A stretch of 34,018 bases of DNA from an uncultured Dehalococcoidia bacterium (GTDB lineage: Bacteria > Chloroflexota > Dehalococcoidia > DSTF01 > CAZFGZ01), in the NCBI GenBank assembly GCA_964518585.1, contig CAZFGZ010000004.1, positions 1 to 34,018 of the forward strand, in the 5' to 3' direction. How positions within the stretch are numbered: the stretch's first letter is position 1; the number at the start of each line of letters is the position of its first letter. The notes under the pieces are model-generated. The model searched no databases and was not told the DNA's origin. It worked only from the letters and a program-made list of their open reading frames with translations. The translations under genes and the position numbers were made by a program. Below, in pieces: positions 3,481 to 24,171 of this stretch.

Positions 3481-3515
3481 GGCCTCCTCGACCACTGAGG
3501 AGGCCCTTTCTTTGT
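3481..3515 (+). terminator. Rho-independent terminator candidate ending the mvhD-hdrD-etfAB operon
   Basis: Perfect 9-bp stem GGCCTCCTC / GAGGAGGCC with a 7-nt loop (GACCACT), followed by CTTTCTTTGT. It starts 18 nt after the etfB stop. Confidence 0.6.
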
Positions 3516-3565
3516 CCCCCGCTACGCCCGCGGGACTTGCCAAGTCAGCCCGCCGGCAGTAGGGT

Positions 3566-4429: not shown

Positions 4430-4459
4430 GTGAGGGCTCAGGAGGGAGGTTGATAGCCG

Positions 4460-5986: not shown

Positions 5987-6029
5987 GCGCCAAAGTGGCA
6001 GCCCGAACCCTCACGAGCACACACGTCAA

Positions 6030-6054
6030 GGGCCCGGCCGCATTGGCCGGGCCC
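6030..6054. terminator. Bidirectional hairpin terminator candidate between convergent genes
   Basis: Perfect 10-bp GC stem GGGCCCGGCC / GGCCGGGCCC with a 5-nt loop (GCATT), in the 90-nt gap between the convergent CrtI-like (+) and thiolase (-) genes. A T-containing tract (CCGGTTCGTCTT) follows on the + strand. Confidence 0.5.
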
Positions 6055-6076
6055 CCGGTTCGTCTTGGGGCGGCGG

Positions 6077-7324
6077 CTACACGCTCAGCACGTGCACGGC
6101 GACGGCCGCGGCCTCCCCGCGCACCATGCCGCCGCCGTTCTCGGTGATCCCCACCTTGGCTCCCTGCACCTGGCGGTCGCCGGCTTCGCCGCGGAGCTGG
6201 CAGAAGATCTCGTAGATCTGGGCCACCCCCGTCGCGCCGATGGGATGCCCCTTGGACAGCAGACCGCCGCTGGTGTTGACGGGGACCTTGCCGGTGAGTT
6301 CGGTTACCCCCTCGTCGATGAGGCGGCCGCCCTCGCCCTGCTTGCAGAGCCCGATCTCCTCGTAGAGCACGACTTCGGCCGGGGCGGTGGCATCGTGCAG
6401 CTCGACGACGTGCGCATCCTCCGCGCCGATCCCTGCCATCTCGTATGCCTTCGTGGCCACCCGCTCGCTGATGCCCGGCTGGCCCTCCCTTCCGTCCTTG
6501 CCCGAGCCCAGGGCCGTCCCGCGCACCCACACCGGCTTGGTGGTGTGCTGGCGGACCTTGTCCTCGCTCACCAGGATCGCCGCAGCGGCCCCATCCCCGA
6601 TCGGCGAGCACATCAACCGCGTCAGCGGCTCCGCGACCAGCGGCGACGCCAGGATCTCCTCCAGCGTGTACACCTCCCGATACTGCGCGTGCGGGTTCAG
6701 ACTGCCGTGGTAGTGGTTCTTCACCGCTATCTTGGCGAACTGCTCCTTGGTGGTGCCGTACCTCTGCATGTGGTTGCGGGCGAGCGCGGCGTAGAGGTCC
6801 ATGAACATGCTGCGGGACTTGCCCGCGCCGGTCTCGGCCTCCGCCCCCTCCTTGGGTGGCTCCTTCTTGGCCTTTTCCTGGGCCTGCGCCTGCATCTGGG
6901 CGATGATCTGCTGCATCACCTCCACGTCCACCGCGCTGCCGATGGCGGCGAAGGAGCGACGCTTGTCCTCGTGGTAGAGCTTCTCCACGCCCAGGGCGAG
7001 CGCGATGTCGTACATGCCCGAGGCCACGTACAGCCAGGCGAGGTGAAAGGCGGTGGAGGAGCTGGCGCAGGCGTTCTCCGTGTTGACCATGGGGATGGCC
7101 TCGATCCCCATCTCGCGCAGGACCACTTGGGCGCGGACGCACTCCTGGCCCGTGACCAGCCCGGCGGCGGCGTTGCCCACCACGGCCACCTGAAGGTCCG
7201 ACTTGTCCATCCCCGCCGATTGGAGGGCTCCCTCCACGGCCTCGCGGCCCAGGTCCTTCATGCTGCGGTCCAGAAACTTGCCGAACCGCGTCATGCCGGC
7301 TCCGACGATGGCGACGTTCCTCAT
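6077..7324 (-). CDS. Thiolase-fold protein, SCP-x / nonspecific lipid-transfer-protein type
   Basis: The canonical N-terminus MRNVAIVGAGMTRFGK begins at ATG 7324 (AAAGGA upstream), so the 19-codon track extension from 7381 is unlikely. The active-site region is NTENACASSSTAF. The C-terminal region has GHPIGATG and NGGG without the second catalytic Cys, as in SCP-x/Ltp-type thiolases. Confidence 0.85.
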   Translation of the reverse strand: MRNVAIVGAGMTRFGKFLDRSMKDLGREAVEGALQSAGMDKSDLQVAVVGNAAAGLVTGQECVRAQVVLREMGIEAIPMVNTENACASSSTAFHLAWLYVASGMYDIALALGVEKLYHEDKRRSFAAIGSAVDVEVMQQIIAQMQAQAQEKAKKEPPKEGAEAETGAGKSRSMFMDLYAALARNHMQRYGTTKEQFAKIAVKNHYHGSLNPHAQYREVYTLEEILASPLVAEPLTRLMCSPIGDGAAAAILVSEDKVRQHTTKPVWVRGTALGSGKDGREGQPGISERVATKAYEMAGIGAEDAHVVELHDATAPAEVVLYEEIGLCKQGEGGRLIDEGVTELTGKVPVNTSGGLLSKGHPIGATGVAQIYEIFCQLRGEAGDRQVQGAKVGITENGGGMVRGEAAAVAVHVLSV

Positions 7325-7421
7325 CACGCTATCCTTTCGAGAGATCCGGTAGCCGTGATCGATTCCACAGCCAGGATACACACAGGCTTCTGCCCTGCCA
7401 AGGGCGATACGGCCTACGCAA

Positions 7422-8306
7422 CTAGAGGTGAGCGCGCTCCTCCAGGAACCGCACGATGCGCTCGGCTAGCTGCTCTGGCGAACCCTCGACCGGCCCGCCT
7501 TCCCGCTGCTCGATCCCCCCGCTGATGACCATCTGCCAGCGCTGCGCCGCCGGCATATCGCTGGGTGGAGCCGTCAGGCCACGCGTATCCGGCGGCGGCG
7601 GCGAGAGCGACACGACGCGGAGCGCCGAGCCCGCCGCTCCCACCTCCTCGGCCCGCAGGCCCAATTCGGCCAGCCCCCAATGCTCGATAGGCGCCGACTG
7701 CGACCGCAGGCGGACGCGCACCCGCGGATAGCGAGGGAGGTTGGCCCCAGTCTCGACCGTGCAAAGCGCCGGCAGCGGCGCCCTCTCCACCAGCCGATAG
7801 CCCCGCCCGGCCCGCCGCTGGGCGACCAGGGAGCGGCCCTCCTCCTGCACCTCCAGGCTCACCACGCTCGTGAGCAGAGGGATGTCCAGCAGCTCGGCGA
7901 GCTGGGGGCCTACCTGGCCGGTATTGCCGTCGGAGGAGCGGATCCCGCACAGCACCAGGTCCGCGCCGATGCGGCGCACCGCAGCGGCGAGGACGCGGGC
8001 GGTAGCCAGGGTGTCCGAGCCCTCAAAGGCATCGTCCCAGAGGCGAACGGCGAGGTCCGCGCCCTGAGCGAGACCGGCCCGCAGCGCCTCCTCGCACGGC
8101 GGGCGGCCCATGCTAACCGCAGTGACCTCGGTGTCCGGAAGAGCGTCGCGCACCTGGAGGGCCGCCTCAAGGGCATGAGCGTCGGCAGCGTTCAGGCTGT
8201 GCGCAAGGTTCTCCTCGTCCAGCGATAGGCTGCGAGGGGCTACCTCCAGAGGCTGCGCCGGGTCCACGACCCGGGCGACGCACACGACGATCTTCATCTT
8301 CGCCAT
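7422..8306 (-). CDS. etfB: Electron transfer flavoprotein, beta subunit (copy 2)
   Basis: KIVVCVARVVDP...NAADAHALEAALQVRD...VSMGRP, DDAFEGSDTLATA and CGIRSSDGNTGQVGPQLAELLDIPLLT are colinear with EtfB/FixA. It starts 9 nt downstream of the etfA copy 2 stop. Confidence 0.85.
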   Translation of the reverse strand: MAKMKIVVCVARVVDPAQPLEVAPRSLSLDEENLAHSLNAADAHALEAALQVRDALPDTEVTAVSMGRPPCEEALRAGLAQGADLAVRLWDDAFEGSDTLATARVLAAAVRRIGADLVLCGIRSSDGNTGQVGPQLAELLDIPLLTSVVSLEVQEEGRSLVAQRRAGRGYRLVERAPLPALCTVETGANLPRYPRVRVRLRSQSAPIEHWGLAELGLRAEEVGAAGSALRVVSLSPPPPDTRGLTAPPSDMPAAQRWQMVISGGIEQREGGPVEGSPEQLAERIVRFLEERAHL

Positions 8307-8315
8307 CTGTTCGTC

Positions 8316-9362
8316 TCAGGAGCCGCCAAGGGCGCGCAACAGGTCGGGCGGCGAGGGCCTCACCCCCACCGTCCGCCGCAGCCGCTCCGTCACCGCCGGG
8401 ACCACCTCAAGCACGTCCCCCACGATGCCCAGGTCGGCCAACTCGAAGATGGGGGCATGGCGATCGGTGTTGATGGCGATCACCGCCTTCGACTCCTTCA
8501 TGCCCACCACATGATGCACCGTGCCGGAGATGGCGCAGGCGATGTACAGACGGGGTGCCACCGTCCGGCCGGACAGCCCCACCTGCCGATGGGCCGGCAC
8601 CCAGCCCGCATCGACGGCGACCCTGCTGGCAGCCAGGGCACCGCCCAGCAGCTCGGCCAGCTCCTCCAGAAGGCGGAAGCCGTCCGGCCCGCCGATGCCA
8701 CGCCCTCCCGCCACGACAACTTCGGCGTCGGCCAGGTCCATGGTGGGCGGCGGGTCGCGGAAGACCCGCTCCACTGTGGTTCGCGGCGAGGCACCTTCCG
8801 TGCACACCTCCACCGGCACTACCTCAGGCTCCCTCGCCGGAGGAGCGGCCCGTTTGGCCCCGTAGCCCGCCTGAAAGGTGGCGATCTGGGGCCGGGCGTC
8901 CGGGCAGAGCACCGCAGCGGAGGCCCTGCCGCTGTAAGTGGGCCGGCTCGCCACCAGCAGGCCCTGGGCGTCCAGGTCCAGCCTGGTGCATTCCGAGGCC
9001 AGGCCGGTGCCCAGGCGGGCGGCCACACGCGGCGCCAGCTCGCGGACGCGCCGCCCCGCGGGGAAGGCCACGACGGCCGGCTCCTGCCGCCGGATAAGAG
9101 CCGCCAAGACGGGCGCGCACACGTCGGGATGTCCGTCGCCAAGCAGGGGATGGTCGGCCAGATAGGCGCGGTCGGCGCCACCCCGGCCCAGGGCCTGAGC
9201 CAACGTTCCCAAGCCCTCGCCGAGAGCCACCACGGCCAGCGCCGACCCCAGGCGGTCGGCAAGGGCGCGCCCTTCCGCCAGCAGCTCGAGCGACGCTTCC
9301 TCCAACTGCCCGGCACGGTGGTCAACGACCACCCACACCTCGCCCGGTGCCTGCTCGGCCAT
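8316..9362 (-). CDS. etfA: Electron transfer flavoprotein, alpha subunit (copy 2)
   Basis: The C-terminal FAD domain [11 protein letters not shown]...[10 protein letters not shown]...[29 protein letters not shown]...VIAINTD..APIF is diagnostic for EtfA/FixB. Confidence 0.85.
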
Positions 9363-9381: not shown

Positions 9382-10197
9382 TCAGCGCTCCACGGTGAAC
9401 CACTCGCCCCGGCTGAGGGTGAAGCCGCTGGGGTCGATCTCGGCCCGCAGGATAGTCAGTTCCTCCTCCGACGGCGGCGCCAGCTCCTCCAGGGGGTCGG
9501 CTATGAGGGGCTCGAACTCCATTCTGGAGAGCACCTCCTCCAGGGAGATCCAGGGGGCTATGGCCTGCAGCCTCATCATGTGGCTCTTCTCGTCGAAGCC
9601 GAAGATGGCCCGCTCGGTGATCACCAGGTACGGGCCAGTGTTGGCGGGAAGCCCGGCGCGTTCTCGCGCCCCCGGACTGCCGTCCAGGTAGCCGGGCGAG
9701 GAGATGAAGTCGAGCTTCTCCACGAACTTGCGCTTCTCCAGTTTGGTCATGACGATGGTCCGCCAGCACTGGGAGGCGATCTCGTTGCCCCCGCCCGGCC
9801 CCCCGAAGCGCCTCTCCGGCTTCTCGTAGGTGCCTCCGATAAAGGTGGAGTTGAGGTTGCCGTACTTATCGATCTGGACGGCTGCCAGGACGCCGTAGTC
9901 CATGTAGCCGAGGGCAGCGTGGAAGTCCACCTCGTTCATGCTCGTCCAGCGCACGGAGCGATAGTGAGAGCGGCTCGCTCCGAACATCATACGCCAGAGA
10001 GGGAAGGTGGGGCTCGGCGTGACCGCTCCCTCCTCCACGACGTAGCCCACGTCCGGCGTTCGCATCCGCTTGGCCAGCAGGACGGCCATGAGGGGCGGGC
10101 CGGCCATCTGCACGAAGTAGAGCTTGTCCTCCTCGATGACCCGGGCAATGCTACAGATGTTTGACTCGATGTCCGTAAAGGTGAGTTGCTCACTCAT
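9382..10197 (-). CDS. CoA-transferase, subunit B (glutaconate-CoA-transferase GctB-like, family I)
   Basis: Size (271 aa) and sequence resemble GctB-type beta subunits (VQIDKYGNLNST.IG...GPGGGNEIA). The start overlaps the subunit A stop (ATGA at 10194-10197). Confidence 0.8.
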   Translation of the reverse strand: MSEQLTFTDIESNICSIARVIEEDKLYFVQMAGPPLMAVLLAKRMRTPDVGYVVEEGAVTPSPTFPLWRMMFGASRSHYRSVRWTSMNEVDFHAALGYMDYGVLAAVQIDKYGNLNSTFIGGTYEKPERRFGGPGGGNEIASQCWRTIVMTKLEKRKFVEKLDFISSPGYLDGSPGARERAGLPANTGPYLVITERAIFGFDEKSHMMRLQAIAPWISLEEVLSRMEFEPLIADPLEELAPPSEEELTILRAEIDPSGFTLSRGEWFTVER

Positions 10198-11165
10198 TCG
10201 TAGTAGCCCTCCCGGACGGTCTCTTCCTGCCTCAGCTCCAGGAGCTTCTTGGCCCCGACGCGTTGCTCCAGCATCTCCTCATGGGAGGCCACACTGTGCA
10301 CCCACTTCTCGAGGTACTCGTCCATCTTGCCCTGGGCCTGAGCGCCCACGAACTCCAGCATGTGCTGTATGTCGCTGCCGTAGAGCCCGGGGACGCTTCC
10401 CGGGTAGGTGCCAAATGGGGCCACAACCACCGCATCCACGAAGTAGTAGGGGATGGTGGTCCTCTGGGGCTGCCGGCGAATGGCCTCGTTGTCAATGATC
10501 TCCTCGGTGGAGATGATGAGCTTCTTGGAGGCCATGGCGATCTCGAGCGGCGCGACGCCGGCGCCGAAGACGCGCGCGTTGCCGTGGATGTCGCACTGGT
10601 GAACGTGAATGATGCCCACATCCGGGTTGAGGGCGGGCACCACGCAGACCGGTTTCCCCAGATAGGGATCCTCGACGAGCTTGGCGGCGGAGCGGGCAAA
10701 GGAGTCGGTTCCCCCCATGTACCTCATGGGGAGGAAGGGCACCCCCATGGCCCCGGCGAGGAGGCGATAGGAGAGGGCGCCGTTCGTCCACTCGATGAAC
10801 TCGATCTCCCCCTTCTGGAGCGCCTGGTTAACGATGGGGCCCGTCTCCATCCAGCCCACGTCCACCTTGCTGACGCAGCCGCCGGCGACGAGCAGGGTGA
10901 CATCGGACCAGGTGAACTTCGCGCAGATCCAGAGGTTCTTCTTGCGCTGGCGGATGATCTCCCTGAACAGCGAAGCGGGTCCCCTGCTGGCGATGTTCTG
11001 GTCGTAGGCCACGTAGTCTCCGTCGCTCACGAAGCGGGAGACCGCGTCCTGCTCCGACATCACCTTGTCGACGGCCTTGCGTTGTTTGTGGGTGCGGACG
11101 TATTCCCTCAGACCGTCGGGATCCGGGGGGAGGAACTCGCCGACGCCCGCGGCTAGGACTTCCAT
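10194..11165 (-). CDS. CoA-transferase, subunit A (GctA-like, family I)
   Basis: 323 aa and GctA-sized. MSEQDAVSRFVSDGDYVA, the later LLAGAMGVPFLPMR and the GSD... segments are typical of the alpha subunit. It is translationally coupled to subunit B. Confidence 0.8.
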   Translation of the reverse strand: MEVLAAGVGEFLPPDPDGLREYVRTHKQRKAVDKVMSEQDAVSRFVSDGDYVAYDQNIASRGPASLFREIIRQRKKNLWICAKFTWSDVTLLVAGGCVSKVDVGWMETGPIVNQALQKGEIEFIEWTNGALSYRLLAGAMGVPFLPMRYMGGTDSFARSAAKLVEDPYLGKPVCVVPALNPDVGIIHVHQCDIHGNARVFGAGVAPLEIAMASKKLIISTEEIIDNEAIRRQPQRTTIPYYFVDAVVVAPFGTYPGSVPGLYGSDIQHMLEFVGAQAQGKMDEYLEKWVHSVASHEEMLEQRVGAKKLLELRQEETVREGYYE

Positions 11166-11238
11166 GGTGCTTCACCTCCCGAGAAGATGCTGCGAGACGC
11201 TATCGTATTCTAAGCGGCACAGGGACCACGCACGGCCC

Positions 11239-12072
11239 CTAGGTCTGCTGAGATTCCCCTCTCATCTCCTCCCCGATGGCGCCCTCGGGCATCAGGTTCA
11301 GCGCGTTCCTTAGATAACGCAGCTCCTCCTGGCGCCAGGGGAGAGGGGCCGGCCGCTGGATCATCTTCTCCCGCTTCAGCTCTTCCACTACCTGCGGGTC
11401 CCCCTTGAAGGGCTTGCCGTACTCCATCTCGAAGAAGAGCTGCTCCAGGGGAGCCTTCACCGTCTGCCCCCCCGCCTCGGGGGACTCCGCGGAATAGCCC
11501 ACGGACATGATGCAGACGGGCACCTGAGTCTCGGGCAGCTTGAGCTGTTTGGCGACCTGCTCGACGGTGGGGCCGCTCATGCAGCAGGTGCCCAGGCCCT
11601 CGTCATAGGCCACCAGCGTGGCCTGGGCCACCGCCTGGCCTACGTCCATGAACGCCAGCGGCGACACCGCCGCCTGCTTCCAGATGGGCGTGAAGGCGGC
11701 CCGAAGGAGCTTGTCTATCTGCTCCTTCGTCCCCTTCATGTCTCCCATGCCCACCCGGCCGGTGTCTGCCAGGTTGAGCAGGTCCTGGATCCACTTGTTG
11801 ACCTCGTAGGCCATGGTGTTCTGACACCACAGGATGAAGCAGGGGGCCGTCTGCATCTGCTGGTAGCCCAGGGCTGGAGTGAGGGCCTGGATCAGCTCCG
11901 GAGAAGCCTTATCCCTCCAGACGACGACGGCGTTGGTGGCGTTGATGTTGCCCACGCAGGACGCCCTTCGCGCCGCCTCCAGCATCTTCTGGACCTTCTC
12001 CCGCTCCACAGGCTTGTGCGGAAGGTAGAAACGGATACTCCGCCTGTTACCGAGGACCTCTTTGAGCTCCAT
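11239..12072 (-). CDS. Nitroreductase-family flavoprotein
   Basis: The N-terminal LGNRRSIRFY signature (RRS.R.F) and the later MDVGQAVAQATLVAYDEGLGTC region are typical of the nitroreductase fold. GAAGGAGG lies upstream of the ATG. The gene ends 73 nt upstream of the CoA-transferase genes on the same strand. Confidence 0.75.
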   Translation of the reverse strand: MELKEVLGNRRSIRFYLPHKPVEREKVQKMLEAARRASCVGNINATNAVVVWRDKASPELIQALTPALGYQQMQTAPCFILWCQNTMAYEVNKWIQDLLNLADTGRVGMGDMKGTKEQIDKLLRAAFTPIWKQAAVSPLAFMDVGQAVAQATLVAYDEGLGTCCMSGPTVEQVAKQLKLPETQVPVCIMSVGYSAESPEAGGQTVKAPLEQLFFEMEYGKPFKGDPQVVEELKREKMIQRPAPLPWRQEELRYLRNALNLMPEGAIGEEMRGESQQT

Positions 12073-14305: not shown

Positions 14306-16114
14306 CTAGGACCGTACCGAGTCCCTCGTCCGCACCAGGATCTGGTCGCCGTCCACCTTCACGTCGTAGGAGGGGATATCGCGCTTGAGGGCGCGGGGGT
14401 AGAAGGTGTAGAGCATGCGCCGCCACAAGGGGCGGTGCGCCCAGCAAGCCCAGGAGCCGTCGGCAATGTCGAAGCGGCACCCGTGCCCGGGGCAGGTGAC
14501 CACGGTCCCCTCCAGTTCGCCTTTGGCCAAACGAGAGCCCAGATGGGGACAGCGCGCCCCGAAGGCGAAGTAGGTGCCAGCGGCGTTGGCCACCGCTACC
14601 TCGAACCGGCCCAGGTCGGCCGTCATCATGGTGCCCTCGGGCACGTCCGAGACGCGGCAGACAGGTACGAACCGCGCAGCCAGCCGGGCGCGCGTTCGAG
14701 CCCGCTCCGTCAGGCTCAGCACCAGGGGGCCCGAGAGGGCGTGCAGCGCGAAGGCCGCCAGGAACGCGGGAACGGAGGCACCCAGCCAGGTCGCCTCCTC
14801 GCCCAGGGGGAAGGGAAGACGCAGCACCCCGGCGAAGAGCCCCTCCATGGCCCCCCGCCACCATGACAGCGTGCCCGGCTCGATCCAGTTGTAGATCAAG
14901 AAGCCGATAACCCAGACCGCGATGGCCGAGGGGTTCACGCCCCCCAGGTAGCTGTAGACACCCCGCTCATGGTAGAGGGCGTCCACCTCGAGGCGACGCC
15001 GCCGCAGCAGGAAGTAGTCGGCGGCCAGGATGCCGAAGAGGGGCACGAAGATGGAGCCCAGCAGGAGGAGGAAGCCCTCGAAGCGCAGGAAGTTCACGGC
15101 CAGGGCGAGCACGGTACACAGGACGCCGATAGCCAGCGAGGCCTGCCGCTGCCGCAGTTCTGGCGACACGTTCTGCAAGGACACGGAGGCAGAGTAGACG
15201 TTGGCGAAGGGCTGGTCCGTCTCCAGCCCCAGCACTATCACAATGCCGATGACACCCAACCCCGCCCCCAGGAAATAGCCCGGCAGGTCCTCCAGACCCA
15301 CCGCCGGCATGAACAGCATGCCCAGGGCGGTGAACCAGACGGTGGCCACAAAGAACCCCACGAAGGTACCCAAGAACGCGCCGCCCGACTTTCGAGAGAA
15401 GCGGGCGTAGTCAGCAGCGAGCGGCAGGAAGGCGACGGGCAAAGCGACGATGAGGTCCACGGCCTGCCAGAAGGAAGGCCACGCCCCGACGGAGGACCTC
15501 TCCAGCATGGTGGGCACGCCCGTCAGCCCGAATCCGAAGAGGCTGAACCCCGCCGCCACCAGCAGCGCGAACCAGATGGAGAACTTGCGCACCCACTGCC
15601 GCACCACCGTCTCCGGTCCCGCTGCGGCGAGGAAGGTCATAAGCCCGCCGAAGATGAGCACCCACAGGAGGCGCGTGTTCACCCCCAGGGCGCGCTCCGT
15701 CGCTGCCCCCGCCACCTCCGCCATGAGGGCAACCTGGAAGGTGCCCCACACGATGTTGCGCACTACCGTCAGCCCGCTGGCGACGTAGGAGCCCCGGATG
15801 CCCAGAGGCGCCCGATAGAGCACCATGCTGGGCGCGCCGGTGTCGGCACCGACCACCGCCGCCAGCGCCAGCAGCACGTTGCCGATCACCGCCCCGATGA
15901 TGACGGCCAGGATGGCCTGCCCCAGCCCCAGCGAGGGCACCAGGAGCGCCCCTGTGACCATCAGCACCAGGCTGAAGCCCAGGCTGCCCCAGAGGGCGAA
16001 GTTGTCGAAGGTGCCGAAGGTGCGCGCTTCCCGAGGGATGGGTCGGATGCCCCACTCCGCCGCGGCGGTGCGCGGCCGGCTCAGCGCCTGCAGTCGACCG
16101 GCCAGAACGGCCAC
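14306..16114 (-). CDS. Fusion protein: NCS1/CodB-CytX-type permease domain plus C-terminal Rieske [2Fe-2S] domain
   Basis: The first ~480 aa are polytopic and hydrophobic, with the N-terminal WGIRPIPREARTFG..DNFALWGS signature of purine-cytosine/CytX permeases. The last ~115 aa carry a complete Rieske motif, CPH-x16-CPGH (ARCPHLGSRL...VTCPGHGCRFD). The GTG start lies 18 nt after the alpha1 stop, and GGGAGAGAGGA sits in that gap. Confidence 0.8.
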   Translation of the reverse strand: MAVLAGRLQALSRPRTAAAEWGIRPIPREARTFGTFDNFALWGSLGFSLVLMVTGALLVPSLGLGQAILAVIIGAVIGNVLLALAAVVGADTGAPSMVLYRAPLGIRGSYVASGLTVVRNIVWGTFQVALMAEVAGAATERALGVNTRLLWVLIFGGLMTFLAAAGPETVVRQWVRKFSIWFALLVAAGFSLFGFGLTGVPTMLERSSVGAWPSFWQAVDLIVALPVAFLPLAADYARFSRKSGGAFLGTFVGFFVATVWFTALGMLFMPAVGLEDLPGYFLGAGLGVIGIVIVLGLETDQPFANVYSASVSLQNVSPELRQRQASLAIGVLCTVLALAVNFLRFEGFLLLLGSIFVPLFGILAADYFLLRRRRLEVDALYHERGVYSYLGGVNPSAIAVWVIGFLIYNWIEPGTLSWWRGAMEGLFAGVLRLPFPLGEEATWLGASVPAFLAAFALHALSGPLVLSLTERARTRARLAARFVPVCRVSDVPEGTMMTADLGRFEVAVANAAGTYFAFGARCPHLGSRLAKGELEGTVVTCPGHGCRFDIADGSWACWAHRPLWRRMLYTFYPRALKRDIPSYDVKVDGDQILVRTRDSVRS

Positions 16115-16132
16115 AGCGTTTCCTCTCTCCCT

Positions 16133-19015
16133 CTAGACGATCCTCTCCACGTCTACGGCGATGGCCCGGTCGATCTGCTGAGGCTGCCAGTTGTTCCGCC
16201 AGAAGCGCAGGTGACCGTAGCCCCCCGCCAGGTGCAGCCACTTGACCAGCCCGGGCACCACGGTGTCGTAGGGCTTCCAGTCGCGGTACTGGTACGGCTC
16301 CCAGGCGTGGTAGATGATGACCTCGCCGGGTCGCGCGCCCGAAGAGATCTTCACCCGCAGCTTGCAGGAGTCGAAGTCGTTGAACACGCGGACCTCCTCG
16401 TTGTCCCGGATGCCGCGCTCCTCAGCATCCTCGGGGTTCATGAAAATCGAGGGCTGGCCGCGATGGGTGCGCAGCATGAGCTTGTTGGCCGTCCAGGTGG
16501 AGTGGATACTCGAGCGCTGGTGCCCGCTGCAAAGGCGAAGCGGATAGTCGCCCCCCTGCCGGGGGTTGGGCTTGTGGACGGGGAGCTCCTCGCCGGCCTC
16601 CAGGAACCAGGGATGGTCGATGTAGAACTGGATGCGGCGCGTCAGGGTGGGATAGGGGACTTTCTTTACGACGTGCCAGCTCAGGGGGTTGATGGTCTCG
16701 TTGGGCTTGATGTCGGTGGCCAGGTTCAGGCCCGGCGCGTCCACGCCCGTGCCGGTGAAGCGAAGGATGCCGTGCTCGCGGAGGTCGTCGAGGGTGGTGC
16801 GCTCAGGGAAGGCGCCCGCGCGCACCGTGTCCAGCATAATGTCCTCAGCCAGCTTATCATCGTCATGCTCGCGGATCTCGCCGTCGTAGGTGAAGAGGCG
16901 GTACATGTCGTCGAGCTTGTAGGTTGTCTCATGCACGTCCTGGTACTCGCCGAACTCCCGCTCGCGGGCCCGCTCCTCGATCTTCTTGGAGAGCAGGCAG
17001 AATATCTCCCACTCCGGTTTGCACTCTCCGGGCGGCTCGGCCGCCTTCTCGGTGAGGGTGAGGAAGTTGACGTGGGCCGTGGGGAAGCGGAAGTCCAGCC
17101 TCTCGTAGAAGGAAGCGACCGGCAGCACGATATCCGAGAAGAGGGCGGTGGTGCTCATGCGCAGGTCCACGGTGACGATCTTCTTGAGCTGAGGCCAGAG
17201 CTTTTCCCGCAGAACCTTGAAGCCGCCGCGGGTTCGCCGCAGGGTGGAGCCGTTGACCTCGAAGAATACACGAGGCGGCCTGTCCGGGGGCGGCAGCATC
17301 ACCTTGCCCCACCACTCCTTGTCAACCGCCTCCTGGAAGTACTCGTCGAAGGTGCGCACCATGGCCGGATCGGACCAGTCGCGGCGGTTCCAGATGTCCT
17401 TGTAGCCGGCGTGCCAGTACCAGAAGAAGACCGCCGGGACCGTGATGGGGCTCATGGGGAGGACGGTGACCGTCTCCTGCTCGATGGCGACCATCTCCTC
17501 GGTCAGCGTCGGGTCTTCTTCCCTGAGCTCCTTCTCCAGGTTGGTCGCCTCCAGCGAGAACTCGAGGAAGCCCTCCATGCCCGGCCGCCTCTTGAGCGGG
17601 GTGAGCACGGCGAGCTGGCCGCTGTTCCAGCCCCGCATGCCGGTGCCCTTGCGGCCGAAGTTGCCCGTGAGGGCGAGGAGGAGGGCCATCGAGCGCTCCA
17701 TGAGGTCGCCGTGGAAGTGCTTGTTCGTGTCGAAGCCCTGGATGATGTGGATGTTGCGTGCCCGCATCACCATGTCCGCGAGCCTCTCGATAAGCGGCGT
17801 GCAGACGCCGGTGATGCTCGCGACCGTGTCGAGGTCGTAGGCCTGCACCTTCTCCTTCATCAGCTCGAAGGCCGGGGTGACCTCCACCTCCGTGCCATCG
17901 GCCAGGGCCACCTGGTAGCGACCCTCCAGGGCAGGGTCCACCTCACCCAGGGCCAGCGTGCCCCGAGGCGCCTCAACCGCCTTGCCGGCCTTCGTGTCCC
18001 AGAAGTAGAACTGGTCCTCCCGGCCCTCCCCCGTCACGTCGGGCTGCCGCAGGAAGCGCCGGTTGTCCAGGCGGACCAGCAAGGGCAGGTCGGTCTGGTC
18101 CTTGACGAAGGCCTCGTTCACCTTGCCCTCGTCCAGGATGATCTTGCAGAGGCCCAGGGCCAGGGCGGCGTCGCTGCTCGGCACCACGGGGACCCACAAA
18201 TCGGTGTGGATGCTGGTGGCGCTGTAGTCGGGCGCGATGCAGACCACCTGAGAGCCACGGTAGCGGGCCTCGGTTATGTAGTGCACGCAAGGGATGCGCG
18301 TGTACAGCGGGTTGCAGTGCCAGACCATGATCAGGTCGGCGTGCACCCAGTCGTCCACCGAGCTCACGAAGTGGAACTTGCCGAAGGTCTCGTATATGCC
18401 GACGCTGAAGTCGCCGATCTGCCCGTCGGCATCGAGGACGGTGGCGCCGAGGAGGCGGGCAAGGCGCCAGCCGGGGATGGAGCCATGGATGATGGCGTGG
18501 CCGCCGCCGAACTCGTATATGATCGATTCCGGCCCCACCTCCTCGATGGCGTCGAGGACGGCGTCGGCGGTTTCGGTGAGGGCCTCGTCCCAGGAGATCC
18601 GCTCCCAGCGGCCGGAGCCCCGCTCGCCCAGCCGGCGCAGCGGGTAGCGCAGTCGCTCCGGCGCGTAGACTACCTGGCTGAAGGTGCCCCCCTTCTGGCA
18701 GCCGCGAGGGTTCATGTCGGGCACGTCCTCCTCGATCTGGGGATAGGTGCCCGCCTGCTCCTCCCGCCAGATGAGGCCGTCCTTCACGTAGGTCCGCCAC
18801 AGGCAGGAACCCGGGTAGCAGTCCACGCAGTGCGTGCTCCACACGACCTTGTCCCAGGTCCAGTGCTCGCGATAGAGGTCTTCCCAGCCCCGGTAGATGA
18901 CCTCCTCGAGAAGCTCCTCCTCTTTCTCGCGGACGCAGCCCAACTGGGTGAGATACAGCGCCAGGACGGACGCCCCGGTCGCCTTCAAGAAGCCGCGCCG
19001 TGAGATCCTCGGCAT
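16133..19015 (-). CDS. DMSO-reductase-family type II molybdopterin oxidoreductase, alpha subunit, Tat-signal paralogue (alpha1)
   Basis: Starts at ATG 19015 (GGAGGT upstream) with MPRISRRGFLKATGASVLALYL, which carries the twin-arginine motif. The FS0 motif is H-x3-C-x4-C-x34-C (THCVDCYPGSC...NPRGC). IGDFS aligns with the Mo-ligating Asp segment of NarG. Length (~960 aa) and FYIDHPWFLEAGEELPVHK fit the EbdA/SerA/DdhA-sized enzymes. Confidence 0.9.
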   Translation of the reverse strand: MPRISRRGFLKATGASVLALYLTQLGCVREKEEELLEEVIYRGWEDLYREHWTWDKVVWSTHCVDCYPGSCLWRTYVKDGLIWREEQAGTYPQIEEDVPDMNPRGCQKGGTFSQVVYAPERLRYPLRRLGERGSGRWERISWDEALTETADAVLDAIEEVGPESIIYEFGGGHAIIHGSIPGWRLARLLGATVLDADGQIGDFSVGIYETFGKFHFVSSVDDWVHADLIMVWHCNPLYTRIPCVHYITEARYRGSQVVCIAPDYSATSIHTDLWVPVVPSSDAALALGLCKIILDEGKVNEAFVKDQTDLPLLVRLDNRRFLRQPDVTGEGREDQFYFWDTKAGKAVEAPRGTLALGEVDPALEGRYQVALADGTEVEVTPAFELMKEKVQAYDLDTVASITGVCTPLIERLADMVMRARNIHIIQGFDTNKHFHGDLMERSMALLLALTGNFGRKGTGMRGWNSGQLAVLTPLKRRPGMEGFLEFSLEATNLEKELREEDPTLTEEMVAIEQETVTVLPMSPITVPAVFFWYWHAGYKDIWNRRDWSDPAMVRTFDEYFQEAVDKEWWGKVMLPPPDRPPRVFFEVNGSTLRRTRGGFKVLREKLWPQLKKIVTVDLRMSTTALFSDIVLPVASFYERLDFRFPTAHVNFLTLTEKAAEPPGECKPEWEIFCLLSKKIEERAREREFGEYQDVHETTYKLDDMYRLFTYDGEIREHDDDKLAEDIMLDTVRAGAFPERTTLDDLREHGILRFTGTGVDAPGLNLATDIKPNETINPLSWHVVKKVPYPTLTRRIQFYIDHPWFLEAGEELPVHKPNPRQGGDYPLRLCSGHQRSSIHSTWTANKLMLRTHRGQPSIFMNPEDAEERGIRDNEEVRVFNDFDSCKLRVKISSGARPGEVIIYHAWEPYQYRDWKPYDTVVPGLVKWLHLAGGYGHLRFWRNNWQPQQIDRAIAVDVERIV

Positions 19016-19282
19016 GGCTACGCCCCTACCTCCGGCCATCGAATCGCCAGAGGCGCAGCCCTAGCCGAGAGCCGTCTCGCCATAGCTGCAACACCACCCC
19101 AGCAGGGGATCGAGCATCCTCTCATCTCTGACCGCGTCCCCGCACAAGCATGGCGCGCCTCGCAAGGGCGAAAGCGCGCCACGAATCTCGCTGCGACACG
19201 ACCGTTCCCTATCGGGAAGGCCCAAGACCTGGACACCGCCCAGCCCTTCTAGAAGCCTTCGCCCCCTTCTATGTCTGGCCCG

Positions 19283-20320
19283 CTAGCTCCACTTGATCTC
19301 CGCAGGGTCCTGGACGAAAGGCCCAAACAGGTCCAACCAGTGATACACGATCAGCGTGTCCATCAGCTCGGACGGCTCACCCCTCCTCCTCTTGTCCAGC
19401 TCCTCCCTCAGCGTGTCCAGGGCCTTGTGCACCCCCGGACCGAACAGATGCTCCTGATACTCACTCGGGATGCGCGGCGTGGACTCGTCGAAGCTGCCGT
19501 CCTCGTTCAAGCGGAGCGGGGCCAGCGGCGGGATGTAGAAGACGTTAGGCTCTGTACCATACTCCGCGTGCAGGGGCAGCGCGACCTCCCACTCGTTCAC
19601 CAGCCTGTGGATGGGCCCCTTGGCGTCATCCAGATAGCCGACGAAGACCAGCCGGCCGGGGCACTGCCGCGCACAGGCCGGCGCCACGTTCTTCTCCAGG
19701 CGCGGGAAGCAGAACATGCAGTGCTGGGCGACCTTGCGCACATGGTTGAAGTAGATCTTCTTGTAGGGGCAGGCCTCCATGCAGAAGCGATAGCCCCGAC
19801 AGAGGTCCTCGTTGCGCAGGACGATGCCGTCCTCCTGCCGCTTGTACATGGCGCCTCGAGGGCAGGCCTCAACGCAGGCCGGGTGTGTGCAGTGATTGCA
19901 GAAACGCGGCAGGTAGAAGAAGTAGCTGTTGGGGTACTCGCCGGCGCCCTCGTCCTCATCCCAGTTCGGGCCCCACGTGGGGGCAGGGCCCTTGGCCTGG
20001 AGGAAGACTGAGTTCCCCTTGCCCTGGTAGAACACCTCTTCGTAGTTGAAGTCCCAGCCGCCCCCGAACTCGTCGCGGGTGGGCAGGTGTCCCAGGACGG
20101 GGTTACCGTCGCGATAGCCGCCCCCCATCTGCTCCCAGTCCTTTGGCGTCCCCTTGCCGGGCTGCGTGTTCACCGAGCACCACCACTGGTACTCCTCGCC
20201 CTCCTCCCGGGTCCACAGGACCTTGCAGCCCACGGAGCAGGTCTGACAACCGATGCACTTGTTGAGGTCCAAGACCAGCGCCAGCTGGTGCTGAGGAGCG
20301 GTCCGCTCTTGCCTAACCAT
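19283..20320 (-). CDS. DMSO-reductase-family type II, beta (NarH/EbdB-like four-cluster Fe-S) subunit
   Basis: The cluster motifs are CIGCQTCSVGC, CNHCTHPACVEACP, CRGYRFCMEACPYKKIYFN and CMFCFPRLEKNVAPACARQCP. The third has an aromatic residue where NarH has Trp, which implies a 3Fe-4S cluster. The likely start is ATG 20320 (GGAGGT 4 nt upstream) rather than 20353. Confidence 0.9.
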   Translation of the reverse strand: MVRQERTAPQHQLALVLDLNKCIGCQTCSVGCKVLWTREEGEEYQWWCSVNTQPGKGTPKDWEQMGGGYRDGNPVLGHLPTRDEFGGGWDFNYEEVFYQGKGNSVFLQAKGPAPTWGPNWDEDEGAGEYPNSYFFYLPRFCNHCTHPACVEACPRGAMYKRQEDGIVLRNEDLCRGYRFCMEACPYKKIYFNHVRKVAQHCMFCFPRLEKNVAPACARQCPGRLVFVGYLDDAKGPIHRLVNEWEVALPLHAEYGTEPNVFYIPPLAPLRLNEDGSFDESTPRIPSEYQEHLFGPGVHKALDTLREELDKRRRGEPSELMDTLIVYHWLDLFGPFVQDPAEIKWS

Positions 20321-20368
20321 GCCTACCTCCTGCCTGTGAGATCCCATCGGCAAGCGAGGGGACCCAAC

Positions 20369-21019
20369 CTACGCCTCTAGCTCCAGCTCACGCCATTCCC
20401 TGGAGAAGGACTTGAGCCCGGCGCGCTCCCCCTTGGAGCCCTCCCAGACGGCGAAGGCCACCTTCACACTCTTGCCAGCCTCCAGTTGCACCGCGGCCTC
20501 GGTCTCGCCCTTCGTCGCGAGCGGCCGACTCAGCACGACCTGCCAGGCGCCCGCGTCCCAGCGGGCTCCCGTGGCGATCTGGCCGCCGCCCGTCTCCTCC
20601 ACCGTGCCCAGGCCGCCAGCGGCCAGGTTCTGGGCGGCATTCTCCAGGTCGGCCCGCCAGAACCAGGCGTTGACCGGCTGGCTCTGGCTGCCCATCGTGT
20701 TCAGGGGAGCATCCCCCTTCAGCGGGAAGAGGATGCCCGCCCCGTCGGGGCTGTTGCCCTCCAGGAAATCAAGGTTCTGGGTAGAGTCGGGCCACGCGAG
20801 CAGGAAGGCGATGTCGCTGCCGTTGTGCGCGGCGCGCACGGTGAGGTTCTCCAGTTTCCCGTAGGGGCGCTCGCGGGCCCACAGTTGGACATAGCGGCTG
20901 TTCTGATTCTCGGCGGGCGCGGGGCCCATAGCGATGGTCTCGGCTGGCACGTCCCGCCACTGGGACGCTGTGGGGTCGAGCAGAACCTTAGAATCGACGT
21001 CAACCCGCTTAGCTTGCAT
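20369..21019 (-). CDS. DMSO-reductase-family type II, gamma subunit, EB_dh (ethylbenzene-dehydrogenase gamma-like) heme-b domain, no signal peptide
   Basis: 216 aa with an EbdC/SerC/DdhC-like sequence (DIAFLLAWPD, FPLKG...NTMGS, NAWFWRAD, VAFAVWEGSKGERAGLKSFS). Candidate Met and Lys heme ligands are present. GGGAGGGAGG lies upstream of the ATG. An in-frame TGA 11 codons upstream, with no intervening start codon, excludes a leader peptide. Confidence 0.8.
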   Translation of the reverse strand: MQAKRVDVDSKVLLDPTASQWRDVPAETIAMGPAPAENQNSRYVQLWARERPYGKLENLTVRAAHNGSDIAFLLAWPDSTQNLDFLEGNSPDGAGILFPLKGDAPLNTMGSQSQPVNAWFWRADLENAAQNLAAGGLGTVEETGGGQIATGARWDAGAWQVVLSRPLATKGETEAAVQLEAGKSVKVAFAVWEGSKGERAGLKSFSREWRELELEA

Positions 21020-21076
21020 GGCGCCTCCCTCCCTTGCAGCGTGTAGCCATCAGCAACTCCCCACCGCCGCTTCGCC

Positions 21077-23845
21077 TCACCTCGCCGCCCCGTCGATCTT
21101 CGCCACGTCCAGGTGGATAGCCCGGTCGATGGGGACGGGCTGCCAGTGAATTGCCCGGTAGCGCAGGTGGCCGTAGCCGCCGGCCAGGTGCAGCCACTTC
21201 ACCATCCCCGGCTCCACGTTGGCCGCGTCCTTCCAGTCGCGGTGCATGTAGGGCTCAAAGCCATTGTAGATGATCAACTGCCCCGGCTGCACCGCGGGCG
21301 AGATCTTCACCCACACGGTCATCGAGCCCATGTCGTTGAACGCCCGCACCTCCTCGCCGTTGTCGATGCCCCGCTCGCGGGCGTCCCCGTCGTTCATGAA
21401 CATGAAGGGCCGCCCCTGGTGGGTGTTCAGCAGTATCTTGCTGGTCATGTTCATGGAGTGGATGCTCCAGCGGTTGTGGCCGGAGGTCAGCAGGAAGGGA
21501 TAGTTTCCGCCCTGCATGGGAGTGTCCTTGTGCACGGGGAGCTCCTCCCCCGCTTCCAGGAACCAATCGTGGTCGATGTAGAACTGGGCGCGCCGCGTGA
21601 GGGTGGGGAAGGGCATCTTCTTCTCGGTGTGCCAGCGGAATGCCGCGTGGGTCTCATTGGGCTTGAGGTCGGAGGCCTGCGCCAGGGCCATGGAGCTCCG
21701 GCCCCAGTCGATGAACCGCACGTGACCCTTCTCCCGCATCGTCTCGAGGGTGGTGCCCTCGGGCAGAGTCCCCAGGAGGGCGCTGTCCCGCACCATCTCA
21801 TCCAGTATCCTGTCGGTGTTCTCCAACCGCCCGTTCAGGGTCATGGTCTCGTACATGTTCTCGAAGTTGATCGTGGCTCCGGAAGGGAACTGGAGCTCTG
21901 TCAGCCCTCTGGCCTTGGCCCGCTCCTCCAGCTTCTTGGTCAGAGCGAGGTTGATATGCCACTCATCCATGGCCTCGCCCGGCGGGTCCACTGCCTTGTC
22001 GGAGAGGGTGAGGTTGAGGACGTGGCAGGAGGTGTAGGTGAAGTTGGGCTTCTCGTAGTGGTGGGCTGCCGGCAGCACGAAGTCGGAGTGGAGGCCGGTG
22101 GTGCTCATGCGCGGGTCAATGCTCACGATCATCTTGAGCTTGGGCCAGAGGTGCTTCAGGAGCATGCCCTGGCCGCCCCGCTGGCGCCGCAACAGGTTGC
22201 CGCCGATCTCGAAAATCACGCGGGGCTCCGTCTCCTGCGGAGGGAGCATGAAGCCCTGCCACCAGCCCTTCTCGATGCCCTCCTTTATGTACTCGTCGAA
22301 GGAGCGGGGCATACTCGGGTCGTTCCATTCCTTCTTGTTCCAGATGTCGCGGTAGCCGCAGTGCCAGTACCAGAAGAAGACCGGCGGTGTCCAGCCGCCC
22401 ATGGCGGCGGCGCGGTAGCTCGACTCCGCCATCACCATCTCGTCGGTCATGGTGGGGTCCTCCGCCTTGACGGCATCCAGCATGGAGTCTCGGAGCGCGA
22501 TGGCCCGGCGGCTGGCCTCCTCACCGAGGTCGGTCTTCATCGCCGCCAGGCCCATCCCGTCGAACATGCCGACGGCCCAGCTCCGCGCGCCTGACCCCTT
22601 CCTGCCCCAGTTGCCGGTAAGGCCCAGCAGCAGCATCATGGAGCGCTCCATGAGGTCACCGTGGTAATACTTGCCGGCGTTCCAGCCCATGAGGGCGCGG
22701 GTGCGCTTCACGGCAGCCTTCCGCGCGACGCTTCGGATAGAATCCGGGTGCACGCCGCAGATCTTGGAGGCCTCCTCCGGGCGATATTCCTGCAGCCGCT
22801 CCTTGAGCAGCACGAAGGCCGGGGTCACCTCCACCAGCGTCCCATCGGAGAGAGCGGCCTGGTATGCTCCCTCCAGGGCGGGGTCGACCTCGCCGAGGGC
22901 GAGGGTAGCCCGGGGTGCTTCCGCCACCTTGTTGGTCTTCGTGTCCCAGAAGTAGAACTGGTCCTCCAGTCCCCCCTCCTGCATGTCGCTCCCCCGCAGG
23001 AAGCGCCGGTTGTCCAAGCGCACCAAGAGGGACAAGTCCGTCTGCTCCTTGACGAAATCCACGTGGTGCAGGTTCTCCTCGACGAGGACCTGACACATGG
23101 ACAAGGCGAGGGCAGCATCGGTGCCCGGACGCACCGGCAGGTGATAGTCGGCGTGGATGGCCGAGGGGCTGTAGTCCGGGGCGATGGTCACCACCTCCGC
23201 ACCCTTGTAGCGACCCTCCGCGACGAAGTGATACCAGGGGATGGATGTGTACACGGGGTTGATCTGCCAGAGCAGCGTGAGGTCGGTGTGGAACCAGTCG
23301 TCGCAGCTGCTGGCGGGGTCGAACTTGCCGAAGGTGACGTAGATGCCGGGGCTGAAGTCGTTGATCTCCGCCTGAAGGTCCGTGGTAGTGCCACCCAGGC
23401 GCATGAGGAAGGCGCCGGCCAGCATCAGCGTCTGCATCCCACCCTCCGCGGGCGTGCCGATGCGCATGATCGAATTGGGCCCCTGCTCCTGCAGCGCATC
23501 CAGTATGGCATCCGCGATCTCGCCGAGAGCCTGATCCCAGGAGACCTGCTGCCACTTGCCGGACCCGCGCTCGCCCACCCGCTTCAGGGGATGCAGCACC
23601 CGCTCCTTGCCGTAGAGGAGCTGGCTCCAGCAGGCCCCCTTCTGGCACCCCGCGGGGTTCATGTCGGGGACACCCTCCTCGATGGTGCGGAAGGTGCCGG
23701 CCTGCTCCTCGCGGAGAACCACCCCGTCCTTCGAGTAGACCCGAAACGGGCAGTTGGTGGGGTAGCAGTCCACAGCGTGGCTGCCCCAGGTGACCCTGTC
23801 CCACTTCCACATGTCCCGGTAGCGGTCCTCCCAGGTCCCAGGCAT
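21077..23845 (-). CDS. DMSO-reductase-family type II molybdopterin oxidoreductase, alpha subunit, leaderless paralogue (alpha2)
   Basis: Colinear with alpha1, sharing identical blocks (LVRLDNRRFLR, EDQFYFWDTK, TLALGEVDPALEG, HGDLMERSM, VFFWYWH, VKWLHLAGGYGHLR). It has the same H-x3-C-x4-C-x34-C motif (SHAVDCYPTNC...NPAGC) and INDFS at the Asp-ligand position. It starts MPGTWEDRYRDMW, which aligns about 40 residues into alpha1. AAGGAG lies 6 nt upstream, and an in-frame TGA lies 10 codons upstream. Confidence 0.9.
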   Translation of the reverse strand: MPGTWEDRYRDMWKWDRVTWGSHAVDCYPTNCPFRVYSKDGVVLREEQAGTFRTIEEGVPDMNPAGCQKGACWSQLLYGKERVLHPLKRVGERGSGKWQQVSWDQALGEIADAILDALQEQGPNSIMRIGTPAEGGMQTLMLAGAFLMRLGGTTTDLQAEINDFSPGIYVTFGKFDPASSCDDWFHTDLTLLWQINPVYTSIPWYHFVAEGRYKGAEVVTIAPDYSPSAIHADYHLPVRPGTDAALALSMCQVLVEENLHHVDFVKEQTDLSLLVRLDNRRFLRGSDMQEGGLEDQFYFWDTKTNKVAEAPRATLALGEVDPALEGAYQAALSDGTLVEVTPAFVLLKERLQEYRPEEASKICGVHPDSIRSVARKAAVKRTRALMGWNAGKYYHGDLMERSMMLLLGLTGNWGRKGSGARSWAVGMFDGMGLAAMKTDLGEEASRRAIALRDSMLDAVKAEDPTMTDEMVMAESSYRAAAMGGWTPPVFFWYWHCGYRDIWNKKEWNDPSMPRSFDEYIKEGIEKGWWQGFMLPPQETEPRVIFEIGGNLLRRQRGGQGMLLKHLWPKLKMIVSIDPRMSTTGLHSDFVLPAAHHYEKPNFTYTSCHVLNLTLSDKAVDPPGEAMDEWHINLALTKKLEERAKARGLTELQFPSGATINFENMYETMTLNGRLENTDRILDEMVRDSALLGTLPEGTTLETMREKGHVRFIDWGRSSMALAQASDLKPNETHAAFRWHTEKKMPFPTLTRRAQFYIDHDWFLEAGEELPVHKDTPMQGGNYPFLLTSGHNRWSIHSMNMTSKILLNTHQGRPFMFMNDGDARERGIDNGEEVRAFNDMGSMTVWVKISPAVQPGQLIIYNGFEPYMHRDWKDAANVEPGMVKWLHLAGGYGHLRYRAIHWQPVPIDRAIHLDVAKIDGAAR

Positions 23846-24085
23846 GACGCCGCTCCTTGCTAATCCGGCTCGTCAGTCGTGCAATGCAGGCAACACACCC
23901 ATGGCGCCCCTGTCCCCGGCACTACCGCTTGGGCTGCACATCTCGATGACGGCTTCCGGGAAGCCAGGACGCAATGGGAGCTGCCGCTTTCCACCGTTGC
24001 GCAGGTAGTCCCTGAGTCTAGAAATGCCGGGAGGCTCGCATCCAGAGCCATCCATCCCCTTGTCCCCGGGCCAAACGTCCCGCTA

Positions 24086-24113
24086 ATTCTAGCAGTTGCT
24101 AGGTTCAGCGCAA
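24086..24113 (-). promoter_or_regulatory. Sigma-70-like promoter candidate for the alpha2-gamma-beta operon
   Basis: On the minus strand, TTGCGC (24113-24108), a 16-nt spacer, then TAGAAT (24091-24086). This would give a leader of roughly 235 nt before ATG 23845. Called by eye only. Confidence 0.3.
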
Positions 24114-24171
24114 GACAGGGACATGAGAGAACCAGGCGAGCGGCTCGGCAGGCCTGCCGCGGCAGCCAGAT

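Follow-up and report, generated by a model that had tools for sequence, protein, structure and literature searches.

Could a single pair of electron-transfer subunits serve two catalytic subunits that appear to be addressed to different sides of the membrane? The question is raised by a gene cluster of an uncultured Dehalococcoidia bacterium (contig CAZFGZ010000004.1 of assembly GCA_964518585.1), of which we have analysed positions 1 to 34,018 (the window from here on). This 34-kb stretch has a G+C content of about 67%, and among public sequences it is closest to genomes assembled from metagenomes that belong to Dehalococcoidia and other Chloroflexota. The cluster lies on the minus strand in the order alpha2, gamma, beta, a gap of 267 bp, alpha1 and, after 18 nt, a permease; a preliminary description of this DNA, made from the sequence alone, had given the same order and coordinates from alpha2 to alpha1. 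The alpha2 gene (21077..23845, 922 amino acids, aa) encodes a leaderless catalytic subunit of the molybdenum-bis(pyranopterin guanine dinucleotide) type (Mo-bisPGD) similar to EbdA, which is the alpha subunit in ethylbenzene dehydrogenase (EBDH), as judged from Pfam, TIGR03479 and the structure 2IVF_A. It is followed by gamma (20369..21019, 216 aa), a leaderless heme-b subunit of the EB_dh family (PF09459, 2IVF_C), by beta (19283..20320, 345 aa), an iron-sulfur subunit with four Cys groups and no leader (TIGR03478, 2IVF_B), and by alpha1 (16133..19015, 960 aa), a second Mo-bisPGD catalytic subunit, recognised by TIGR03479 and by its match to EbdA, that is targeted to the twin-arginine translocation (Tat) pathway. 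The permease (14306..16114, 602 aa, about 12 transmembrane segments) is of the NCS1 type (PF02133, PF00355). We favour, with somewhat better than even confidence, the answer that one leaderless beta-gamma pair is shared by the two differently targeted alphas, one of the resulting complexes being exported and the other cytoplasmic.

The coexistence of two such alphas is not a peculiarity of this contig. Ten loci with an alpha1-type gene were compared (the window, L001, L002, L007, L020, L021, L022, L025, L026 and L027), and the synteny, which the preliminary description had singled out as worth surveying, recurred in all of them as a module made up of a leaderless alpha, beta with or without gamma before it and delta (a NarJ/TorD-type chaperone gene) after it, a Tat-bearing alpha and an NCS1-type permease. 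The leaderless alpha is always located just upstream of the alpha1-type gene, with only gamma, beta and/or delta between them; next downstream comes the permease, preceded in some loci by a CN_hydrolase gene. In the window, L001, L002 and L025, for which 19-34 kb were covered, there is exactly one beta and one gamma. Comparison of the window with L002, a 90-95%-identical locus, gave dN/dS ratios of 0.09-0.21 for all five genes of the module (0.09 for alpha1, 0.16 for alpha2, 0.21 for gamma), and all five are under purifying selection. The pairing of a leaderless with a Tat-bearing alpha is real and recurrent and reflects long-term co-inheritance of the set.

Neither of the two partner subunits carries a targeting signal. 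The open reading frame (ORF) lister opens beta at a TTG (20353), but the ATG at 20320, behind AGGAGG, is the better start, as had been proposed. The product is a Fer4_11 protein, the third of its four Cys groups with three Cys only, that scores 493.2 bits against TIGR03478 (cut-off 480.7) and whose residues 8-340 align to residues 14-349 of EbdB (2IVF_B; E 3e-126). Gamma begins 57 nt after the stop codon of alpha2 and, as already noted in the preliminary description, cannot be extended, an in-frame TGA being found 11 codons upstream. It matches PF09459 above the cut-off (E 8e-31), remains just under that of TIGR03477 (163.8 bits, cut-off 169.85), and aligns over residues 1-213 to residues 1-211 of EbdC (2IVF_C, 214 residues; E 1e-31), with MQAKRV... 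facing MKAKRV.... Its Met109 and Lys203 match Met108 and Lys201 of EbdC and are conserved; the latter two we take to be the axial heme ligands in the EBDH structure.

These alignments remove several apparent anomalies. In EBDH, the Tat-bearing alpha (like alpha1) is the only subunit with extra N-terminal sequence, and the equally leaderless EbdB and EbdC align from their N-termini with the beta and gamma described here. A gamma with its own signal, which the preliminary description had regarded as the rule for this group, is therefore not what EBDH has: EbdC is leaderless and aligned with our gamma residue 1 to residue 1, and a leaderless gamma is the norm for the clade, in which the Tat signal of alpha carries the entire complex. 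Nor do the predicted topologies conflict, as had been suspected, since beta and gamma bear no address of their own. Two interpretations had been offered, namely a cytoplasmic alpha2-beta-gamma enzyme plus an exported alpha1, or one beta-gamma module shared between differently targeted alphas, and with the arrangement present in ten out of ten loci the second is the better fit.

A way to put this gene content in context is to compare it with the multi-alpha systems of Sterolibacterium denitrificans. The genome of this organism contains 8 alpha genes and 5 further sets of beta and gamma, with just 2 copies of the chaperone gene (PMC6153880), and the subunits of its S26DH1 are listed in the order gamma-beta-alpha under three consecutive accessions, with a non-adjacent accession for delta (PMC7411048). 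Gamma before beta, a non-adjacent delta and surplus alphas therefore all have precedent. Two of the contrasts with characterised enzymes drawn in the preliminary description have to be given up or softened in consequence: for S26DH1, gamma is listed ahead of beta (PMC7411048), and the statement that a delta gene accompanies these enzymes was too strong in view of the same delta accession and of two chaperones for eight alphas (PMC7411048; PMC6153880). Like the steroid C25 dehydrogenases (S25DH1-4) and S26DH1, whose setting is alkyl side-chain catabolism (PMC7411048; PMC6016249; PMC6153880), the window has more alpha paralogues than beta/gamma sets or deltas (two alphas, one beta and one gamma), and its contiguous gamma-beta-alpha1 repeats the order given for S26DH1. 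The S25DH/S26DH alphas, however, all carry Tat signals and have been assigned to the periplasm (PMC7411048), whereas one alpha of the window is leaderless; the likeness considered here is that of arrangement and published description. By this analogy, the locus would work most like a multi-alpha S25DH/S26DH system.

In the mechanism that we propose, the two alphas would belong to two water-dependent molybdenum hydroxylases or dehydrogenases of the EBDH/steroid C25 dehydrogenase type with different substrate pockets, and beta (with three [4Fe-4S] and one [3Fe-4S] clusters) and gamma (with heme b ligated by Met and Lys) would be their common electron-transfer module. After maturation in the cytoplasm, beta and gamma would combine with either alpha, depending on which is present. 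The alpha1-beta-gamma complex would then be exported folded via Tat, as in EBDH, its signal-less subunits 'hitch-hiking' on alpha1, to the outer face of the cytoplasmic membrane, and alpha2-beta-gamma would stay in the cytoplasm. Dehalococcoidia are regarded as monoderm (PMC10284905), so an exported complex would need retention, and it may stay anchored by an uncleaved or lipid-modified signal. The constant linkage of the permease suggests membrane passage of a substrate or product between the two enzymes, reminiscent of the proposal that periplasmic and cytoplasmic steps alternate when cholesterol is degraded anaerobically (PMC7411048). The NCS1-type permease would move this substrate or hydroxylated product, and the two enzymes would act on the two membrane sides of one catabolic route, feeding the nearby CoA-transferase, thiolase, hydratase and electron transfer flavoprotein (ETF) genes.

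Several observations weigh against this scheme. The 267-bp gap between beta and alpha1 (19016..19282) contains a hairpin at 19151-19181 (GC-rich inverted arms of 8 bp around a 15-nt loop, lacking a T-tract) and could divide two transcription units. Extra beta, gamma and delta copies are located close by in L007, L020, L022 and L026, so that a second set may exist outside the window. In three other loci (L003, L004 and L019) beta precedes a leaderless alpha and no gamma was detected within about 10 kb on either side, which means that alpha2 may not need gamma and that, going by this gene content, some cytoplasmic members may work as alpha-beta without a heme subunit. The positions of His192 and Asp485 of EbdA, which we take to be active-site residues of EBDH, are not conserved, alpha1, alpha2 and EBDH differing from one another. 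Lastly, we know of no acceptor for a cytoplasmic EBDH-type heme b, and the heme of EBDH is a high-potential one, with periplasmic cytochrome c as its presumed acceptor (PMC8840923).

Some of these points would also fit two independent enzymes, a cytoplasmic alpha2-gamma-beta on the one hand and, on the other, a separate unit of alpha1 and permease using beta and gamma (and delta) from elsewhere. The hairpin-containing gap falls where such units would be divided, several beta, gamma and delta copies are found near these clusters in related genomes, and delta must come from elsewhere anyway. We nevertheless consider this alternative unlikely, if still a serious contender. The Tat-alpha directly follows beta or beta-delta in all ten loci, the order listed for S26DH1 makes gamma-beta-alpha1 as natural a unit as alpha2-gamma-beta, and four loci have a single beta-gamma in their 19-34 kb.

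As for delta, its absence from the window, noted in the preliminary description, was confirmed over the whole 34 kb. About 30 window genes were scanned with Pfam without a match to PF02613 (the NarJ/TorD-type delta), and when the window, translated in six frames, was searched with a hidden Markov model (HMM) of the delta genes of six related loci, nothing came up at a threshold as lax as E<=50. A delta gene or pseudogene remnant in the beta/alpha1 gap, or in the rest of the window, is rejected on the same grounds. Delta is present in L007, L020, L021, L022, L026 and L027. In L021, where the order is alpha, gamma, beta, delta, Tat-alpha, permease, it is a PF02613 gene of 196 aa, lying after beta and before the Tat-alpha at the very place that the 267-bp gap takes up in the window. 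From these gene orders, delta seems to have been lost from the cluster in one sub-lineage with the rest of the module intact, and a NarJ-type delta is probably encoded elsewhere in the genome.

The nature of the two catalytic subunits can be approached through their domains and cofactor ligands. Both contain the Pfam Molybdopterin and Molydop_binding domains. Against TIGR03479, alpha1 scores 994 bits, above the cut-off, and alpha2 925 bits (model positions 43-912), just under it because the first 42 model positions are missing. In the comparison with EbdA, alpha1 aligns from EbdA residue 21, leader included (E 2e-236), and alpha2, for which EbdA is the best solved structure (2IVF_A), from residue 63 (E 1e-234). 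Each is 40-41% identical to EbdA, and they share 52% amino-acid identity with each other; the identical blocks listed in the preliminary description are indeed present in both. At the nucleotide level the identity is 66% and the longest exact match 31 nt. One stretch of 30 codons around LVRLDNRRFLR shows high third-position identity between the alphas, which is unconvincing with a G+C content near 0.9 at third codon positions. In a neighbour-joining tree of 73 alpha sequences (simple distances, no bootstraps), the leaderless sequences form a monophyletic clade, its sister is the Tat-bearing clade holding alpha1, and EbdA is outside both. A recent duplication, or gene conversion between the two genes, is not supported by the nucleotide identity, the longest match or the tree; judging from the latter, alpha1 and alpha2 are old paralogues from two sister clades.

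The Asp ligand of molybdenum (Asp223 in EbdA numbering), the ligands of the FS0 cluster (His82, Cys86, Cys92 and Cys127) and Lys450 show no variation among alpha1, alpha2 and the whole set of 73 aligned sequences. By these signatures, both alphas are type II (Asp-ligated) Mo-bisPGD proteins of the EBDH-like branch. The preliminary description had assigned the locus to the type II enzymes of the EBDH group with an EB_dh gamma, and the Pfam, NCBIfam and 2IVF matches bear it out. With the cofactor ligands intact in both alphas and in gamma, and with low dN/dS, both enzymes look functional.

Among characterised systems, the EbdABC(D) of Aromatoleum aromaticum (2IVF) gives full-length matches to all subunits (E 1e-234 to 1e-236 for the alphas, and the values given above for beta and gamma), and it shares with the locus the Mo-ligand Asp, the FS0 His and Cys residues, Lys450 and the gamma residues at EbdC Met108 and Lys201. 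It differs in gene order (alpha-beta-gamma-delta, against alpha-gamma-beta-alpha here) and in that the locus has a second, leaderless alpha and no adjacent delta. The scores with the EBDH equivalog models are well below the cut-offs, 835 for alpha1 and 825 for alpha2 (cut-off 2000), 434 for beta (740) and 139 for gamma (400), and by this measure the locus is not an EbdABC orthologue set. Another comparable system, going by published description, is AhyABC of Desulfococcus oleovorans Hxd3, a non-denitrifying anaerobe; it is an EBDH-like putative alkane C2-methylene hydroxylase, proposed to act on non-aromatic hydrocarbons (PMC3653055).

Could the two enzymes instead be respiratory reductases or dehydrogenases of oxyanions, N-oxides or S-oxides (Ser/Clr/Pcr/Ddh/Nar-like) rather than C-H hydroxylases? 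The subfamily models TIGR03477-9 span all type II enzymes, perchlorate reductase is the second-best structural relative (E 1e-151 to 1e-156), and the differences at His192 and Asp485 of EBDH would be accommodated as well. We think this improbable, given that EBDH is the best structural match for all three subunits, with EbdA by far the nearest characterised relative of the alphas, and that multi-alpha arrays are typical of the hydroxylase group. The surroundings of the cluster argue in the same direction. The window contains genes for CoA transferases, an SCP-x-type thiolase, an enoyl-CoA hydratase, two ETF pairs, an Hdr-like FlpD/CCG pair and a nitroreductase, and similar catabolic genes recur around homologous clusters. 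Such a neighbourhood suggests organic-substrate catabolism and not oxyanion respiration.

The proposed difference in location depends on the N-termini of the two alphas. The ORF of alpha1 opens at 19039, and the start at 19015 (MPRISRRGFLK) agrees with that called for a 93%-identical database protein. Its signal region (residues 1-27, MPRISRRGFLKATGASVLALYLTQLGC, about 18935-19015) combines SRRGFLK with a hydrophobic h-region, confirming the twin-arginine leader of the preliminary description, and SRRGFLK is the sole strict Tat motif (S/T-R-R-x-F-L-K) across the six frames of the window. A Tat signal is found on every complete sequence of the alpha1 clade (55-93% identity). The signal of alpha1 has no Ala-x-Ala site and shows a Cys directly after the h-region (LTQLGC), and this Cys is kept throughout the sub-clade of alpha1 homologues that contains the window, about 13 of the listed sequences. 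LTQLGC misfits the canonical lipobox at position -3 and is at most a possible lipobox. From its place in the signal, the Cys may point to lipid anchoring, or to a signal anchor that is not cleaved off, in a monoderm cell.

On the other hand, alpha2 begins with MPGTWEDRY, with AAGGAG before its ATG and an in-frame TGA 10 codons upstream. Within the 326 bp upstream of it (23846..24171, minus strand), a non-coding and presumed promoter region, no Tat-like motif was found in any of three frames. The leaderless start of the preliminary description stands in every detail, and a hidden leader or a frameshift upstream of either alpha2 or gamma is ruled out by the upstream stops and the frame scan. The same start residue is found in 90-92%-identical proteins from independent ENA, JGI and NCBI assemblies; the assembly or frameshift error that the preliminary description had allowed for is at odds with this, and the missing leader is not an assembly artefact. 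More broadly, none of the 120 best homologues of alpha2 (59-92% identity, from Dehalococcoidia, other Chloroflexota, Binatia and Deltaproteobacteria) has a twin-arginine leader or a hydrophobic N-terminal region. From this distribution, the leaderless state is ancestral and stable in the alpha2 clade. Nowhere in the clade is the N-terminus shorter than in the alpha2 of the window and the relatives 90-92% identical to it, most other members having a polar, Lys/Arg-rich extension of 15-40 residues before a conserved W-E/A-D-x-Y-R motif. NarJ-type chaperones bind the N-terminus of their alpha (PMC10609526; PMC10100899), and by analogy with NarG the extension might be a remnant chaperone-binding peptide. 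One leaderless protein that is 64% identical to alpha2 (P0030) has the automatic JGI label 'steroid C-25 hydroxylase alpha subunit', which is a hint only.

Tat hitch-hiking of signal-less subunits is established for this enzyme family, as the leaderless EbdB and EbdC would have it, which raises the prospect that both alphas end up outside the cell, alpha2 piggy-backing on an alpha1-containing complex or on some other signal-bearing partner. The higher-order assemblies formed by the related nitrite oxidoreductase (NXR) (PMC8387239) could be cited in its favour, but EBDH is described as soluble and as composed of three subunits, alpha, beta and gamma, without a further alpha in the complex (PMC8840923), many leaderless alphas lie in loci where a Tat-alpha is not close by (L004, L019 and L024) and no candidate carrier gene appeared among the window genes scanned, all of which makes this route very improbable. 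That the lack of a leader is an error of assembly or annotation, or that alpha2 is a decaying pseudogene, is hardly credible, the unusually short N-terminus notwithstanding, in the face of a start shared by three independent sources, 120 leaderless homologues out of 120, the stop 10 codons upstream with no Tat motif in any upstream frame, a dN/dS of 0.16 and intact cofactor ligands.

If the two alphas do reside in two compartments, a parallel is provided by the nitrate reductases (NarGHI/pNar) and NXR, a family with both cytoplasmic and exported members, in which some face the cytoplasm with a lost or degraded Tat signal (PMC10609526; PMC10100899). There, however, the two orientations belong to separate organisms or operons and are served by separate partner subunits, the partner in the membrane is NarI or a gamma of another type, and the chemistry is that of nitrate/nitrite redox conversion. 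Every characterised anaerobic C-H hydroxylase of the group (EBDH, p-cymene dehydrogenase and S25DH/S26DH, with EbdA, CmdA and S25dA as alphas) has been reviewed as periplasmic (PMC10100899). A full-text literature search retrieved no account of EBDH-like enzymes that are leaderless or cytoplasmic, or that come from Chloroflexota, although an earlier mention remains possible. We know of no case in which a conserved module with only one electron-transfer pair combines the two orientations. The leaderless EBDH-like clade and its conserved pairing with a Tat-bearing alpha may thus be undescribed, as a variant within a known family.

Taken together, and tentatively, the picture would be that Chloroflexota, and probably also Binatia and some Deltaproteobacteria, have a large cytoplasmic clade of EBDH-type Mo hydroxylases, that the choice of alpha sets the membrane side on which one FeS/heme-b module works, and that a dedicated NCS1-type permease shuttles the intermediate; we hold this joint reading with less assurance than the sharing of beta and gamma by itself. 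Were the leaderless clade truly cytoplasmic, oxygen-independent hydroxylation would reach a new compartment and abundant uncultured monoderm bacteria, the intracellular electron acceptor for a high-potential heme b would become a question, and signal-less enzymes might lend themselves more readily to expression for biocatalysis. The constant association with an exported paralogue and a permease also provides a testable model, in which the catalytic subunit allots one electron-transfer module to either compartment.

Regarding the remaining features of the window, the permease gene contains a Rieske [2Fe-2S] domain in its C-terminal part (14309-14671, minus strand; PF00355) with intact CPH...CPGH ligands. 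The nearest NCBIfam model of the permease (PF02133 together with PF00355) is the CytX-like TIGR02358, below its cut-off. The Rieske domain is predicted to be cytoplasmic because an Arg-rich stretch follows the last transmembrane segment. Among the loci compared, the fusion is found only in the window and L002, which rules out the Rieske domain as a general partner of the system. A CN_hydrolase gene (nitrilase/amidase superfamily) accompanies the alpha1-type/permease pair in three loci, between the two genes in L022 (12907-13968) and L027 (11904-12977) and just after the permease in L020 (14626-15624). On the basis of these family assignments, CN_hydrolase and the NCS1 permease hint at an N-containing or heterocyclic substrate.

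Scans for regulatory elements were mostly empty: the Rfam scan of the window gave no molybdenum cofactor riboswitch and no other family at gathering thresholds, the consensus promoter scan no promoter-like sites, and no sigma-70 consensus site 5' of alpha2, and terminator-like sites are not commoner in the window than in shuffled sequence. A 1344-aa open frame on the plus strand (14969-19003), antisense to alpha1 and the permease, fails the codon-position GC filter that real genes pass and is a shadow ORF typical of high-GC DNA.

Further along, a nitroreductase gene and genes for two CoA-transferase subunits form a trio (9382-12072, minus strand) that also stands beside EBDH-like clusters in at least two other Chloroflexota contigs, L023 (17552-20194) and L025 (17721-20384), the latter delta-less like the window and continuing after its module with the same nitroreductase and CoA-transferase A/B genes. 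L023 also has many SCP-x-type thiolase and ChsH2-like (DUF35) genes, as in sterol side-chain degradation. Genes for an FlpD-like and a CCG/4Fe-4S Hdr-like protein are found in the left part of the window (15-9362), together with two ETF alpha/beta pairs encoded on opposite strands and with genes for an amine-oxidase-type flavoprotein and for an SCP-x-type thiolase. Judging from their families, the products might jointly form an electron-transfer route for acyl-CoA oxidation.

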